Source: a virus
Direction: 5' to 3' (one strand)
Length of the DNA: 64,000 nucleotides
IMG/VR virus record: IMGVR_UViG_3300017917_004222
Location: 1 to 64,000 of that record
Below are positions 2,776 through 62,368 of the stretch, piece by piece. How positions within the stretch are numbered: the stretch's first letter is position 1; the number at the start of each line of letters is the position of its first letter. The notes beneath the pieces were generated by a model. The model searched no databases and had not been told where the DNA came from. It was given only the letters and a program-made list of their open reading frames with translations. A program made the position numbers and the translations under genes.

Positions 2776-2946
2776 TCAAAATTGTCCGAGCCAGGCGCGA
2801 GCCTGCTCCACATCAGTGAAGAATCTCATGGTGAGCTGTTCACTATAAATATCGTAGACATAGATGTAGCACACGGTGCGATCTGGGTTGAGGCTGAGAT
2901 GCACATGACCCGCCCCGTTGTTGAACACAAAGTCTCTGGTAATCAT
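2776..2946 (-). CDS. hypothetical protein (56 aa), antisense within tRNA array, late promoter
   Basis: fills the gap between two tRNAs; TAAATA 5 nt upstream of ATG. Confidence 0.7.
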   Translation of the reverse strand: MITRDFVFNNGAGHVHLSLNPDRTVCYIYVYDIYSEQLTMRFFTDVEQARAWLGQF

Positions 2947-2958
2947 GCAAGTATTTAA

Positions 2959-3036
2959 GCGGGTAGATTGTGGCAAGGGGCGCCCAGCGGTCTTCCAAAC
3001 CGATAATGCGGAGTTCGACTCTCCCTACCCGCTCCA
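2959..3036 (+). tRNA. tRNA-Gly(TCC), irregular D-arm
   Basis: loop CT-TCC-AA, U73, CCA. Confidence 0.8.
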
Positions 3037-3092
3037 AGACGTCTCCATTACACACGGAGTACATTAGGAAAAATAGTGTGTAACGAATTCAT

Positions 3093-3167
3093 GCCTGGTT
3101 AGCTCAGCGGTAGAGCAGCGCCCTTACAAGGCGACGGTCGGCGGTTCAATCCCGTCACCAGGTACCA
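3093..3167 (+). tRNA. tRNA-Val(TAC)
   Basis: canonical cloverleaf. Confidence 0.95.
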
Positions 3168-3173
3168 AACAAA

Positions 3174-3244
3174 TGCGGGGAGTCAGGCGAGGGGTCAGTC
3201 TCATAAGCTCGGCCCAGGAGGTTCGAATCCTTCCCCCGCAACCA
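3174..3244 (+). tRNA. initiator-like tRNA-Met(CAT) with reduced D-arm
   Basis: TGCGGGG/CCCCGCA+ACCA as in fMet; loop CT-CAT-AA; D-arm shortened. Confidence 0.6.
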
Positions 3245-3249
3245 ACTTT

Positions 3250-3323
3250 CTCGGTGTAGTGAAATGGTATCACCCGTGCTTTGGGAGCATGTAGCGCAAG
3301 TTCGATTCTTGCCACCGAGACCA
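3250..3323 (+). tRNA. tRNA-Pro(TGG)
   Basis: loop TT-TGG-GA, CCA. Confidence 0.9.
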
Positions 3324-3332
3324 ATTGACAAT

Positions 3333-3352
3333 GCACAGGTACCAGAGTGGTC
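3333..3352 (+). pseudogene. 5' fragment of a disrupted tRNA (probably Cys)
   Basis: GCACAGG-TA-CCAGAGTGGTC; acceptor pairs with CCTGTGC-T-CCA at 4166-4176. Confidence 0.75.
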
Positions 3353-3414
3353 TTGAAAACTAGGTTTTCGGAATCGAGGTGTGGTTTAACTACTCTGCTT
3401 TCCGCCAAAGTTAT

Positions 3415-3490
3415 GTAGATGTGACCCGAATGGCCAGGGACCGGATTGCAAATCCGGTATATGCAGGTTCAAATCCTGTCATCTACTCCA
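3415..3490 (+). tRNA. tRNA-Cys(GCA)
   Basis: loop TT-GCA-AA, U73, CCA. Confidence 0.93.
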
Positions 3491-3528
3491 TTTTACGAAC
3501 TTATGCTATATATAAAGCGAGAGTTCAA

Positions 3529-4152
3529 ATGTTTTGTGAAAATTGTAAAAAAGAGCACAACGGTAGTTACGGATCAGGAAGATTTTGCGGAGCTAAGTGT
3601 GCTCGCGGGTTTTCTACTAAAAATAAAAGAGTGGAAATAAATCGAAAAGTTTCTGCCAAAATGTCTAATAGGTCGTTGTCAGATGAACACAAGAAAAACA
3701 TAGAACAAGCAAACAATTTTAATCGAAAAGAGAAAATTACAAAAAATTGTTTGAATTGTAACACTACAATGCTATGTCGGCCATCAGATCACAGGAAATT
3801 TTGTACATCAAAATGCTGGGCAAACTACACAGAAAAAAATAAAGAACCTTTTTTGTTATACAGACAAAGATGCAACTTTGATTTCAAGTTTGAAGATCAT
3901 CCAGATAAATTTGATTTATCACTAGTAGAACAATTTGGATGGTATAGCCCGAGCAACAAAGGAAACAATTTAGATGGTGTTTCTAAAGATCACATGGTCA
4001 GTGTTAGGACCGGGTTTGAGTTGGGGATAGACCCTGAAATTATTAAACACCCGGCCAACTGTAAATTAATGTTACACCGACAAAATCAAAGTAAAAACCA
4101 AAAAAGCTCAATTAGAGTCGAGGAATTAATCGAAAGAATAAAAAATTGGTGA
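3529..4152 (+). CDS. HNH-type homing endonuclease with Zn-finger/NUMOD3-like N-terminus
   Basis: CxxC..FCxxxC motifs, SKDHMVS...HPANCKLMLHRQNQSK HNH-like core, AT-rich. Confidence 0.85.
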   Translation: MFCENCKKEHNGSYGSGRFCGAKCARGFSTKNKRVEINRKVSAKMSNRSLSDEHKKNIEQANNFNRKEKITKNCLNCNTTMLCRPSDHRKFCTSKCWANYTEKNKEPFLLYRQRCNFDFKFEDHPDKFDLSLVEQFGWYSPSNKGNNLDGVSKDHMVSVRTGFELGIDPEIIKHPANCKLMLHRQNQSKNQKSSIRVEELIERIKNW

Positions 4153-4176
4153 GTTCGAATCTCACCCTGTGCTCCA
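4148..4176 (+). pseudogene. 3' fragment (T-arm plus acceptor) of the disrupted tRNA
   Basis: GGTGAGTTCGAATCTCAC-CCTGTGC-T-CCA; overlaps the endonuclease stop codon. Confidence 0.8.
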
Positions 4177-4181
4177 ATCAT

Positions 4182-4271
4182 GGAAGATAGGCTGTATGGT
4201 GCAGACGCGGTCTTGAAAACCGTCCCGCTGTTGAGGAAACGGCGACAGTTCGATTCTGTTATCTTCCTCCA
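4182..4271 (+). tRNA. tRNA-Ser(TGA), 8/4-type non-canonical cloverleaf, U73
   Basis: GGAAGATA/TATCTTCC acceptor, ACAG/CTGT T-stem, long V-arm. Confidence 0.82.
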
Positions 4272-4289
4272 CTAACAAGGAGAACGTGC

Positions 4290-4466
4290 ATGAAAGCCGT
4301 GTATTTTGAAAACCTACGCAACCGCGAACGTTTCTATTGCACTGATGTCAAGGACGTTCGCATGATCGACGGTGTAGAATATCTGCGTGTGTTCCGTGAA
4401 GGTACCCAGCGTGATTGCTTGGTCAAACGGGAACTGTTGCGCAGGATACCTGCACCAAGTAAATAA
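4290..4466 (+). CDS. hypothetical protein (58 aa)
   Basis: AAGGAG SD, ORF MKAVYFENLRNRERF... Confidence 0.75.
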   Translation: MKAVYFENLRNRERFYCTDVKDVRMIDGVEYLRVFREGTQRDCLVKRELLRRIPAPSK

Positions 4467-4467
4467 C

Positions 4468-4498
4468 GCCGCGGTAGCTCATCAGGTAGAGCAGCAGA
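4468..4498 (+). pseudogene. 5' half of a truncated tRNA (Phe-like)
   Basis: GCCGCGG-TA-GCTC-ATCAGGTA-GAGC-A-GCAGA, then an abrupt break before the anticodon loop. Confidence 0.75.
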
Positions 4499-4516
4499 GT
4501 AGGCATAAATAGACTT

Positions 4517-5107
4517 ATGCTAACCTGTAAATACTGCCAAAAAGAATGCAAGAGCGAGAACTCTTTAAGAAATCACGAACGTTGTTGTCCGCATAATCCG
4601 TCTAGAGTATACAAAAACGGCATGCTAGGAAAAAAAGGATCCAACCAGTTTACCTTGGCGAAGCGATTAGGGAATAATGTCCCTGCCGCATGGAACAAAG
4701 GTTTGCCGGGGTTCTTTGCAGGTAAAAAACACAGCGACGAATCTAAAAGAAAAATTAGCGAAAAACTTTCAGTCAACAACAAAGGCGGAAGAGCCAAGTG
4801 GTATGACGTTGCTGGGCAACGAGTTCAAGGTACCTGGGAAAGAGATATAGCATCGAAGTTGACTGATCTCGGAGTCCCGTGGATAAAGTTAAAGACAAAC
4901 AAAGATACACTGAAGTATGTTATGAACGGGAAAGAGCGTTCATATACTCCTGACTTTTATCTTCCTGAATTCGATATGTACCTTGAGATCAAAGGTTTTT
5001 GGTGGGGAGATGATCGAGAAAAGATGCGTATTGTACTCGAAACGCACACCGACAAACGTATTGTAATAATAGAGAAACAAGAGTACGAACAAATTTTGCT
5101 GCTTTAG
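4517..5107 (+). CDS. homing endonuclease: Zn-finger + NUMOD3 + PD-(D/E)XK nuclease
   Basis: CKYC..HERCC, AWNKG..KHSDESKRKIS, YTPDFYL...LEIKG; AT-rich. Confidence 0.85.
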   Translation: MLTCKYCQKECKSENSLRNHERCCPHNPSRVYKNGMLGKKGSNQFTLAKRLGNNVPAAWNKGLPGFFAGKKHSDESKRKISEKLSVNNKGGRAKWYDVAGQRVQGTWERDIASKLTDLGVPWIKLKTNKDTLKYVMNGKERSYTPDFYLPEFDMYLEIKGFWWGDDREKMRIVLETHTDKRIVIIEKQEYEQILLL

Positions 5108-5173
5108 CTGATGTGGTCATAGCAACGGACTGAAAATCCGAGGAACCCTGTTCGATCCGGGGAGGCAGCACCA
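5098..5173 (+). tRNA. tRNA-Phe(GAA), overlapping the endonuclease 3' end
   Basis: GCTGCTT/AGGCAGC acceptor, loop CT-GAA-AA, CCA. Confidence 0.9.
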
Positions 5174-5186
5174 ACAAGGACTGTGT

Positions 5187-5600
5187 ATGAAACATTTGAT
5201 TTTGGCTCTGGCTCTGTTGTTGGCAGTTCCAGCACAGGCACAAGACATTCCTGCTCGCTTTGATGTGCATACTGACTTGAGGCCGTTTGTGACTTGGATT
5301 GCCCAGCACACCCGGTTCCGGGATGCAGATCGCATCACCAGTGATGAAGTGCCAGAAATTGTGTTTCTCAACGGCAGCGACTACATGCGATTGGTTCGTG
5401 TGTGGGGGCTGGCAGCATACTCTCCAGAGATCAACACCATTGCGGTGAACATGGATCTGGATGGCAATCGAGCAGATGTGCTCATACACGAGTTGATTCA
5501 CTTTTATCAATGGCGTCAAGAATCCTGGGACCGAGGAGACAACGATTCCCGTGAGCGCGAAGCACAACAAATACAGCGCCAGTTTTTGACACGTCAATGA
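5187..5600 (+). CDS. secreted zincin-like metallopeptidase
   Basis: signal peptide ending AQA; LIHELIH HExxH motif. Confidence 0.7.
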   Translation: MKHLILALALLLAVPAQAQDIPARFDVHTDLRPFVTWIAQHTRFRDADRITSDEVPEIVFLNGSDYMRLVRVWGLAAYSPEINTIAVNMDLDGNRADVLIHELIHFYQWRQESWDRGDNDSREREAQQIQRQFLTRQ

Positions 5601-5766: not shown

Positions 5767-5844
5767 GCCCCGATGGTGGAATTTGGCAGACACGCTGCGT
5801 TCAGGTCGCAGTTTCTGAGGGTTCGAGTCCCTCTTGGGGTACCA
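5767..5844 (+). tRNA. tRNA-Leu(CAG) lacking the long variable arm
   Basis: Leu-type D-loop GGCAGACAC, loop TT-CAG-GT, V-loop only TTTC. Confidence 0.85.
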
Positions 5845-5850
5845 AGTTCA

Positions 5851-5911
5851 AGGATGCATTCAGCAAACAACTTTTTTCACTTTTTGGCTGTGAAAAGCAA
5901 ACTGCATCCTG
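5851..5911 (+). ncRNA. CAGCAA-motif armless tRNA-like RNA, copy 3 (loop TT-TTG-GC)
   Basis: AGGATGC/GCATCCT+G, ATTCAGCAA, TTTTCAC/GTGAAAA hairpin. Confidence 0.72.
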
Positions 5912-6259: not shown

Positions 6260-6475
6260 TGCAAACAGAAAAACGTGCGGGGGCAATACCCCTTGGAGCT
6301 CTGGCCCTGGTAAGGCAACTGCATCTCCTATGGATCAGTTGGACGGATGAGAGGTCCGTCACTGTTGCCGGTGTAAAGAATTATCTATTGTGGAATGCCG
6401 CGTGATGCCTTTGTAGTGCAAACCCCGCATCGATGGTTCACAGCCACACGCCCCGGCGAAACCGGACTGTTTGCA
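6260..6475 (+). ncRNA. candidate structured ncRNA (about 215 nt)
   Basis: TGCAAACAG/CTGTTTGCA closing stem; TGCGGGG/CCCCGCA, CAACTG/CAGTTG, GACGGA/TCCGTC, CCGG/CCGG. Confidence 0.55.
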
Positions 6476-61115: not shown

Positions 61116-62368
61116 TACCAGAACCCTCCTCTAAGCAGACGTCCATTAGCAAACCCTTCCAGACTGAACTGCTGGCTCACTTGCGATCGTGTTTGAACCG
61201 GCAACAGAATCACGCTCACCTGCATTTTGGTAGGCACATACGTGGCGTTGGTGGTTGTGGGTGTGTTGACGTTTTGCGACAACACATCAGGTTCGGGCGG
61301 CCTAGGCACAGCGTTTGGAAACAAATTGGCGTTTTTGAGACGATTGGCCATGGACATGAACGGGCCTGCTTGAGTTATACCGCTGGACCTAGAGTTGCGG
61401 TTTTCCAAGTTCACACCAATTTGATTGGGTGCGTCGGCTCGTATGTAGTCCACATCTGCTGGCAGGCTGTAGGTAAAATTGGTCACCAAGCAGGGGTGAT
61501 TGTTGAAGTGATTGGGACCAAATCCCGAAATGTACACCAAGGGCGGCGGTGTGCCAGCCTGGGCATCCTTGCCGTAAAACATCTTGGTCACAGATCTAAA
61601 AAAGTGTATCACAGCCAGCAAATACTGTGCTTCCACTGTGTCTTGTGCTGTGAATTGCCCGGTCACTGTGATTTCGTTTACAGCGCTGTTCTTGTAGAAA
61701 TAACCACGGTAGTTGCTGTGTATGAGGTCATAGCGATCGTAGTTGGCCACATACTGTGTGTCAACTGTGGGTGTGTACGGAAAAATCACACCCTTTTCTT
61801 TGAGCGGGGCCAGAATGCCTGCATTAGACCCTGCATACAGATAATTGGCTCCCGGAGCCAACGTGATCCTGAAACGCCAATCATCGTTGTTGCCAATGTT
61901 TCTGCGAGCCGACAGCGTTTTTTGATTACGTGCTCGATCACGAGCAGCCGCTTCAGTAGCTGCAGCCTCGCGTTCGCGCTGTTCAGCATTCACCTGCTGT
62001 GCAGCTACTGAACCTGCAGGCAACTGTTCACCTGTTACTGGGTCAAACACAAATTCAGGATTGTTTGGCACGCTGGCTGCGGGCACTGGCTGGGGCGTAC
62101 TCACTTCTGCTGCTGGTGGCGGGGGCGCAGGCGGGGGCGGTGTTATTTGTGTGGTTGAGGGTGGTCTCACAGGATTTGCTGTGGTACCAGATGTGGCCCG
62201 CAACTGCTGGTATAGCGATTGCAGTCGCTTGTCAAGATCAAAGATCTGCAGGGTCAGCTGTGTTTGAGTAGTGGACCCAGGAGGAGCCACAGCCAACTGT
62301 TGCCGTAGCACTCGTAATGCATTCTCTATAGGAGTTATTTGTGATTCTATTTCTGAGCGTGTGGCCAT
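61115..62368 (-). CDS. tail tube initiator/baseplate protein (gp48/54-like)
   Basis: VIFPYTP, GTPPPLV, SLPADVDY. Confidence 0.7.
   Translation of the reverse strand: MATRSEIESQITPIENALRVLRQQLAVAPPGSTTQTQLTLQIFDLDKRLQSLYQQLRATSGTTANPVRPPSTTQITPPPPAPPPPAAEVSTPQPVPAASVPNNPEFVFDPVTGEQLPAGSVAAQQVNAEQREREAAATEAAARDRARNQKTLSARRNIGNNDDWRFRITLAPGANYLYAGSNAGILAPLKEKGVIFPYTPTVDTQYVANYDRYDLIHSNYRGYFYKNSAVNEITVTGQFTAQDTVEAQYLLAVIHFFRSVTKMFYGKDAQAGTPPPLVYISGFGPNHFNNHPCLVTNFTYSLPADVDYIRADAPNQIGVNLENRNSRSSGITQAGPFMSMANRLKNANLFPNAVPRPPEPDVLSQNVNTPTTTNATYVPTKMQVSVILLPVQTRSQVSQQFSLEGFANGRLLRGGFW

Follow-up and report, generated by a model that had tools for sequence, protein, structure and literature searches.

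Free-standing homing endonucleases are already known from the transfer RNA (tRNA) clusters of phages. SegB of phage T4 is a free-standing GIY-YIG homing endonuclease encoded in a tRNA cluster (PMC2330249; PMC13096335); its recognition site includes the T-loop motif, its target lies within the tRNA-Asn gene of phage T2L (PMC2330249), and its homologues in other phages show a statistical association with tRNAs (PMC13096335). Enzymes of this kind have been described as cutting or displacing tRNA genes, not as repairing their loss. The locus considered here lies in a window of 64,000 nucleotides (nt), the first 64 kilobases (kb) of the 147.8-kb IMG/VR virus record IMGVR_UViG_3300017917_004222 (completeness estimate, 43%). 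At positions 3333 to 4176 of this window a resident tRNA-Cys gene has been split, and between its two pieces lie an intact, divergent tRNA-Cys gene and an open reading frame (ORF) for a putative nuclease. We consider it probable that this insert is a free-standing homing-endonuclease cassette aimed at phage tRNA-Cys genes and equipped with a tRNA-Cys of its own. What appears to be new is a selfish gene packaged with a substitute for the gene that it destroys, inside the wreck of its target.

Anatomy of the split tRNA-Cys gene and its insert

The mobile unit spans about 750 bp and comprises a divergent tRNA-Cys(GCA), a 38-nt spacer containing a hairpin, and the gene for a zinc-finger and HNH-like putative nuclease of 207 amino acids (aa). 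It sits within the resident tRNA-Cys, whose ancestral site lies between tRNA-Pro(TGG) and tRNA-Ser(TGA); all features of the locus, from this tRNA-Pro through this tRNA-Ser, are on the plus strand. The 5' piece of the resident gene (3333-3352) can be read in the raw sequence as the acceptor strand GCACAGG (3333-3339), TA, the D-stem strand CCAG, and the D-loop sequence AGTGGTC, ending at 3352. The 3' piece (4148-4176), likewise read from the raw sequence, holds a complete T arm made of GTGAG (4149-4153), TTCGAAT (4154-4160), and CTCAC (4161-4165), followed by CCTGTGC (4166-4172), T (4173), and CCA (4174-4176). The two acceptor strands are perfect reverse complements, each 7-mer occurring about 10 times in the 64 kb, and the segment from the D loop through the variable loop has been lost and replaced by the insert. 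An initial annotation of this DNA had proposed that a homing endonuclease destroyed a tRNA here and delivered a replacement tRNA-Cys. Each of the features that it placed between 3333 and 4176 was recovered from the raw sequence at the same positions, among them the complementarity of the acceptor strands and the absence of an anticodon arm.

The identity of the split gene was established from intact relatives. A scan of viral contigs with GCAACGGTGGCAGAG, the form of the 5' piece found in two relatives, returned more than 60 intact tRNA-Cys(GCA) genes of 78 nt, including the CCA. The 5' piece of the window itself had no match in the viral contigs as an exact 18-mer, so a degenerate pattern was needed, and this yielded about 50 further intact tRNA-Cys(GCA) genes. 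The pattern scans together gave about 120 intact genes of this target type, 72 of them distinct. The intact gene in contig L296, GCACAGGTACCAGAGcGGTC...GTGAGTTCGAATCTCACCCTGTGCTCCA, agrees with the window at 19 of 20 positions of the 5' piece and at 28 of 28 of the 3' piece, and the 3' end of the intact L243 gene is likewise identical (28/28). These matches identify the split gene as a tRNA-Cys(GCA) of a type widespread in phages, and the insertion disrupts a gene of which about 120 other viral contigs have an intact version. That relatives lacking the insert should carry an intact GCACAGG...CCTGTGC tRNA-Cys had been predicted, and it is what was found in L296, L243, and others, with an intact tRNA-Cys also present at the syntenic site discussed below; a derivation of the two fragments from different tRNAs, which would have told against the proposal, was not seen. 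Because the pieces are nearly identical to intact alleles, the disruption in the window must be recent.

The Cys identity rests on these relatives and not on U73, which the initial annotation had read as Cys-like. U73 is present (4173), but it is insufficient as a Cys marker, because the resident tRNA-Ser(TGA) at 4182-4271 also ends in T-CCA. This tRNA-Ser(TGA) and that of L003 (1534-1623) have U73 where G73 is usual, and U73 likewise occurs in the tRNA-Ser(TGA) of T5-like Salmonella phages.

An empty site corresponding to this insertion is present in L326, a 251-kb contig located by means of a 58-aa ORF (ORF58) downstream of the locus (4290-4463; 79% aa identity). The tRNA genes of L326 run Lys, Lys, and, farther on, Arg(TCG), Ile, Gly(TCC), Val(TAC), Pro(TGG), Cys(GCA), and Ser(TGA), and beyond these come ORF58, Phe(GAA), Arg(CCT), Val(GAC), and Leu(GAG); the whole order is that of the window. 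The tRNA-Cys of L326 is intact, its D arm, TACCAGAGTG, is of the same type as in the 5' piece of the window, and no homologue of the 207-aa ORF was found at the L326 locus by tblastn. The two immediate neighbors in the window were both called by ARAGORN: the upstream tRNA-Pro(TGG) (3250-3323; Rfam, 62.5 bits), which stands in the same Pro, Cys, Ser order in L326, and the downstream tRNA-Ser(TGA) (4182-4271), whose adjacency to tRNA-Cys recurs in L326 and in many intact tRNA-Cys loci. The two contigs show a presence/absence polymorphism at a single locus, as is seen for free-standing homing endonuclease elements.

At its left end the insert begins with a decayed 3' part of a tRNA-Ser(TGA) (3353-3407), which the initial annotation had recognized and which was borne out when the stretch was aligned locally with tRNA-Ser(TGA) genes from related phages, 30 in all (score of 46.5, compared with 21.1 +/- 2.9 and a maximum of 32 in 200 shuffles). 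The fragment retains the anticodon loop, the long variable arm, a degenerate T arm with a decayed T loop, and GCTTTCC-G-CCA, and it was called as a tRNA by neither ARAGORN nor Rfam. The Cys D loop and the Ser anticodon stem share the sequence GGTC (3349-3352), which is consistent with a microhomology joint, and the Ser fragment probably came along from the donor and was joined to the Cys D loop there. We rejected the possibility that GGTCTTGAAAAC is the anticodon arm of the old tRNA-Cys, altered by two substitutions, because a long variable arm and a separate G73-CCA end follow it, as in tRNA-Ser.

The carried tRNA gene (3415-3490) was called by ARAGORN and scored 55.2 bits against the Rfam tRNA model, for which the gathering score is 29. 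From its cloverleaf, GCA anticodon, U73, and paired acceptor stem it is predicted to be an intact tRNA-Cys. Its acceptor stem, GTAGATG/CATCTAC, pairs at 7 of 7 positions, and these stems covary among cassettes. A scan of the whole 147.8-kb record found it to be the only tRNA-Cys present.

The 38-nt spacer between the carried tRNA-Cys and the ORF contains a conserved hairpin (3497-3526; fold energy, -11.2 kcal/mol; z = -3.0) that covers the ribosome-binding site; its 3' strand holds a Shine-Dalgarno-like GAGAG (3519-3523) and adjoins the ATG. In distant family members the hairpin is stronger (-19 to -22 kcal/mol; z = -5 to -6.8) and is built from other stem sequences; it lies directly 5' of the start codon at L148 1447-1489, L146 about 1449-1505, and L141 about 606-667. 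The hairpin 3' strand, (A/G)GGTTC(G/A)AAT-G, resembles a tRNA T loop, and the hairpin loop is an A/T run like TATAAATA. The structure may serve translational or late-promoter control, or it may be a relic of an older T-loop insertion site. In phage T4, hairpins of this kind prevent expression of intron endonuclease genes until late transcription begins within the hairpin, and by analogy the same kind of silencing may apply here.

The 207-aa ORF (3529-4152) ends in a TGA codon (4150-4152) that lies inside the 5' strand of the old T stem, and its G+C content of 30 to 39% contrasts with about 50% in the flanks. It matches phrog_23051 (E = 6e-34) and has 300 homologues at E <= 0.001, many of them exactly 207 aa long. 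All 10 of the copies that we compared are intact at 207 aa, with ratios of nonsynonymous to synonymous substitution rates (dN/dS) of 0.05 to 0.19; the ORF is under purifying selection. The N-terminal half contains two Cys4-type modules, which are FCS-type, treble-clef zinc fingers, and NUMOD3 was scored in some family members. In the C-terminal 100 residues, D154-H155, N177, and N186 are invariant and H183 is found in at least 90% of homologues (alignments of 34 and 44), a pattern consistent with the His, Asn, His/Asn metal-ligand motif conserved in the HNH superfamily. In the AlphaFold models (predicted local distance difference test score, 89; domain model, 89.2), strand 1 terminates in the DH pair, N177 comes before strand 2, and the helix that follows carries H183 and N186, so that the predicted arrangement of the putative catalytic motif is that of a beta-beta-alpha-metal fold. 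No GIY-YIG family appeared in the Pfam or PHROG results for the ORF. Motif and model together make the protein HNH-like, and membership in the HNH superfamily is likely.

Recurrence, mobility, and linkage of the cassette

The cassette was found at no fewer than 15 other loci, with a tRNA-Cys present every time. The succession of 5' piece, tRNA-Cys, spacer, ORF, and 3' piece occurs also in L131/L002, L132, L133, L004, L007, L337, L140, and L341. Throughout the clade with nuclease identities of about 60% or more, each locus that was examined had a tRNA-Cys(GCA) about 40 nt upstream of the ATG, joined to the ORF by a conserved spacer, ...ACGCTAAATATATATAAAGCGAGGGTTCAAATG, and most of these loci had the stumps of a second tRNA-Cys outside the cassette. 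The stump acceptor pairs differ from locus to locus: GGTTCGG/CCGAACC in L131, GCACCGA/TCGGTGC in L132, GTACAGG/CCTGTAC in L133, GCAACGG/CCGTTGC in L004, AGTGCGG/CCGTACT in L007, and GTAGCGG/CCGCTAT in L337. The right joint falls immediately 3' of the last Trp codon in all loci of the clade, and the left joint is variable, the last position of the 5' piece ranging from 12 to 32. One or both stumps have been lost in L009, L135-L139, L339, and L341. At 37 to 40% identity, L148 and L158 show the opposite order within the split gene, namely 5' piece, hairpin, ORF, tRNA-Cys, and 3' piece.

Evidence for movement between alleles comes from L131 and L133, the cassettes of which are 97% identical over 738 nt (36 to 40 of 40 positions per bin), with identity falling to 23 of 40 or less right outside both ends and with different outer flanks. 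The resident alleles that they interrupt also differ (GGTTCGG/CCGAACC and GTACAGG/CCTGTAC). Near-identical cassettes with sharp limits in different resident alleles mean that the cassette is mobile and are evidence that it moves horizontally as a discrete unit. The window cassette itself has no near-identical copy elsewhere; its best match is at 77 to 78% nucleotide identity, and the synonymous divergence (dS) is above 1 for most pairs of cassettes. In L148 and in seven group-A loci, two of which include one G-U pair, the acceptor halves of the stumps nevertheless pair at 7 of 7 positions. Since the stumps still pair perfectly, and those of the window are close to an intact allele, while cassettes differ from one another at dS above 1, the insertions must be much younger than the cassette lineages. 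Young insertions in old lineages in turn imply repeated invasion of new tRNA-Cys alleles. The T stems are often less well preserved: they are chimeric in L007 and L337 (GTGAG opposite CCGAC) and in L133 (GTAGG opposite CCGAC), and they are half-deleted in L004, L132, and L137. Crossing over within the T loop and within the D loop would be expected to leave such a trace, a chimeric T stem beside a perfect acceptor stem.

The association of nuclease and carried allele is close in the loci available, a sample biased in that loci were fetched either by pattern or by the ORF. An ORF homologue was nearby in none of 142 intact target-type tRNA-Cys genes (96 of which had at least 1 kb visible on both sides) and within 300 nt of 14 of the 15 carried-type tRNA-Cys genes; conversely, a tRNA-Cys stood beside the ORF in 8 of 8 loci where the nuclease was at least 60% identical. 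The exception among carried-type genes is L232 (5085-5225), which consists of the 5' stump of a target-type tRNA-Cys, a tRNA-Cys of the carried type, and the initial 24 nt of the spacer, with neither ORF nor 3' stump. It looks like the state expected after the endonuclease gene has been lost and the replacement allele kept. No intact target-type tRNA-Cys was found in the record containing the window or in five other cassette records, all of which are fragments or incomplete. One apparent instance in a cassette record (G005 61795-61813) was discarded as a chance match within coding sequence.

A model for cassette spread, and the alternatives

The observations fit a model in which, during mixed infection, the nuclease would cut the intact tRNA-Cys of a phage without the cassette and the cassette-bearing genome would become the template for repair of the break. 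The remnants of the old tRNA flanking the cassette would act as homology arms, so that crossing over would take place within the D loop and at either the T stem or the T loop, and the recipient would keep its own acceptor halves. The recipient would lose its tRNA-Cys and gain a working allele; because the D loop, the variable loop, and both the T and acceptor stems of this allele are unlike those of the target, it presumably escapes cutting. The constancy of the right joint suggests a cut near the border of the variable loop and T stem. In the window, the left joint would have been illegitimate: microhomology at GGTC with a tRNA-Ser(TGA) of the donor would have dragged in the Ser fragment, which has since decayed.

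Several observations weigh against this model. Target and carried alleles have the same anticodon stem-loop, CGGATTGCAAATCCG. Any discrimination by the enzyme must for that reason read the D loop (AGNGGYCCAAT in targets versus GAATGGTTA in carried alleles), the variable loop (TAAA(A/G)CC versus NNA-TG), or the T and acceptor stems, which are also consistently different. The resident allele of the window belongs to the TACCAGAG subtype, whose variable loop is unlike that of the main target type, and the left joint of the window is atypical. All of the relatives are metagenome fragments, and the nearest one with an empty site is only moderately close. Distant members of the ORF family adjoin tRNA-Ala or other tRNAs. 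In the family as a whole, 57 of 67 distinct loci (L131-L210) have a tRNA within 300 nt; Cys occurs in 27 and Ala(TGC) in 21. Specificity for Cys would therefore be a property of the subclade, and distant subfamilies may target other tRNA genes.

The assignment of the nuclease faces similar objections. Neither the ORF nor 34 homologues matched a Pfam HNH or other nuclease family at E <= 1, the PHROG matches to "HNH endonuclease" are weak and fall on the N-terminal part, and profile searches of the PDB with the whole protein and with the C-terminal domain returned only zinc-finger look-alikes and noise. Foldseek searches with the whole and domain models gave mostly HNH proteins as top hits (Cas9 HNH, McrA, colicin E9, and Gme HNH), at E values of 0.3 or higher. 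In VIA-align, 4h9d scored Z = 3.6 (69 residues, with a root mean square deviation of 4.3 A) and BrxU scored Z = 3.5. Because none of these fold matches is significant, we do not claim HNH membership as proven. The AT-rich gene with its stop codon in the T stem is thus as first described, and the label "HNH" that came with it is likely from the motif, with no profile match and no strong fold match to confirm it.

Three other explanations of the locus were weighed. That the two pieces are exons of a functional interrupted tRNA, with some 800 nt removed as a group I or other intron and with the covariation of the acceptor halves reflecting selection on the RNA, has the perfect pairing at many loci in its favor, maintained although the stem sequences differ between phages, and bacterial tRNA genes can indeed hold group I introns with endonuclease ORFs (PMC3984707). 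Joining the pieces, however, would give a product of about 49 nt that has no 3' strand of the D stem, no anticodon arm, and no variable loop; no intron family was detected at E <= 1 in 2900-5300; the T stems are mismatched or half-deleted in the six loci named above; and L009, L135, L136, L138, and L139 lack one or both pieces while the ORF remains intact. The pairing is accounted for by the origin of both halves from one recently invaded gene, in the face of cassette dS values above 1, and does not call for RNA selection. We rejected this explanation as extremely improbable, given the missing anticodon arm and the lack of any intron family. It is also very unlikely that the locus is a static relic, in which an old tRNA-Cys duplication or rearrangement has decayed around an unrelated AT-rich gene and nothing now moves. 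Decay is evident in the Ser fragment and in several relatives, and the window cassette lacks a near-identical copy, as such a relic would. Against this stand the 97% identical cassettes with sharp boundaries in different alleles and genome contexts, the empty site in a syntenic relative, the near identity of the window pieces to intact alleles, which speaks for recent disruption, and the purifying selection on the ORF.

A more serious competitor, although still an unlikely one, is a relaxed nuclease resembling SegB that provokes recombination anywhere among tRNA genes, so that the tRNA-Cys merely hitchhikes and the split is a by-product, not the result of targeted cleavage. SegB reads a generic T-loop motif and cuts many tRNA genes (PMC2330249), and it drives rearrangements of tRNA loci (PMC13096335). 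The position of the right joint of the window, at the T stem or T loop, and the variability of the left joints from locus to locus would be expected of such an enzyme, as would the other tRNAs beside distant family members and the second endonuclease insertion with a tRNA fragment, 300 nt downstream. The clade at 60% identity or more, however, always has a tRNA-Cys next to the ORF, its surviving relics are of tRNA-Cys only, its right joint is identical across loci, and the nesting within a split tRNA-Cys arises again in the distant L148 and L158 with the gene order reversed.

We return to the reading of the insert as a homing cassette aimed at tRNA-Cys genes, which has support on each point that comparison of sequences can address. 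Its fullest form is a natural "home-and-rescue" drive, in which a widespread zinc-finger and HNH-like family would cut tRNA-Cys genes and spread by means of a diverged, resistant tRNA-Cys, the stumps of each victim serving as the next homology arms; for this we see the chances as even. If it is correct, tRNA-Cys alleles would be turned over across many large-phage lineages, and the replaced allele would stay after loss of the nuclease gene, as in L232. Cleavage and resistance, if true, would explain how a useful and very short gene can be invaded without a masking intron, would provide a mechanism for the turnover of alleles and the litter of fragments in phage tRNA arrays, and would define a new nuclease family of about 300 homologues with a compact, conserved DNA target. 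For annotation, we suggest as a rule that an orphan half of a tRNA gene next to a small, AT-rich ORF in the tRNA array of a phage be read as the footprint of such an event.

The surrounding tRNA array and comparison with known systems

The first 7 kb of the window form a tRNA array in which ARAGORN called 30 genes, and several odd tRNA-like genes without an ARAGORN call are present as well. One of these (2959-3037) resembles tRNA-Gly(TCC), has an oversized D region, and matches Rfam solely as tRNA-Sec, at 29.6 bits and below threshold; another (3175-3240) has a CAT anticodon and an odd D arm; and two orphan T-arm motifs lie between tRNA-Pro and tRNA-Trp at about 205-265. A blastn search found no close relative among 50,697 GenBank phages, and the short matches to T5-like phages over 4151-4295 were set aside as generic T-loop and tRNA-Ser similarity, uninformative about the old tRNA. 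The known relatives are metagenomic contigs, several of which measure 250 to 470 kb, so the lineage is one of large phages.

The second endonuclease insertion in this array (4468-5173) consists of a 33-nt tRNA 5' fragment (4468-4500) and a 196-aa ORF (4517-5107) encoding a C2H2 zinc finger, NUMOD3, and a T7-endonuclease-I-like nuclease, with its TAG stop inside an intact tRNA-Phe(GAA) (5098-5173). In L326 the orthologous tRNA-Phe stands 1 nt after ORF58; the intact tRNA-Phe of the window is therefore the resident gene, and the fragment came with the insert or was made by it. In this the insertion is unlike the Cys case, for here it is the intact tRNA that is resident. The array of a relative offers another combination of fragment, ORF, and intact tRNA: L002 5780-6388 has a tRNA-Leu 5' fragment (about 5783-5815), an ORF that begins at 5871, and, at 6304-6388, an intact tRNA-Leu(TAG).

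Among described systems, SegB comes closest. It resembles the cassette in being a free-standing endonuclease gene in a phage tRNA array, in having its target inside a tRNA gene of phages that lack it, with recognition that includes the T-loop motif, and in co-converting the flanking tRNA region as it homes. The resemblance is one of lifestyle only, since the cassette ORF combines zinc fingers with an HNH-like motif and is not a GIY-YIG enzyme. Cleavage has been demonstrated for SegB, whereas for the cassette enzyme it is predicted, and the papers on SegB cited here describe it neither within the two halves of its target nor as carrying a second, divergent copy of the tRNA that it destroys (PMC2330249; PMC13096335). 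The free-standing HNH endonuclease gene mobE of T-even phages (PMC2790892; reviewed in PMC2988022) shares with the cassette intronless homing, presence/absence polymorphism, co-conversion of flanks, and the form of a small AT-rich ORF in or beside conserved genes. It differs in lying between protein-coding genes, where it disrupts no RNA gene and carries no rescue copy, and the nuclease domain of the cassette differs in turn by its lack of an HNH profile match.

In collaborative homing, as represented by F-CphI beside the intron-containing psbA of cyanophage S-PM2 (PMC6083498), the endonuclease and the protecting feature are likewise separate, linked, and spread together. There, protection comes from a self-splicing intron in the target site that leaves the gene whole; in the cassette the target would be destroyed and a divergent copy put in its place. 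Fractured genes whose products are restored by split inteins (PMC2677866) also have an endonuclease gene between the halves of a host gene and a compensation that travels along with it. Their halves are functional by trans-splicing, whereas those of the cassette are dead relics accompanied by a whole replacement gene. Our search of the literature found no published description of an arrangement like that of the cassette, which does not prove that none exists. Synthetic cleave-and-rescue and home-and-rescue drives, engineered Cas9 systems in insects, couple the nuclease that destroys a needed gene with a copy of this gene that resists cleavage, inserted at the target locus. By analogy, the cassette would follow the same logic in a form that is natural, guided by protein, and carried by a phage.

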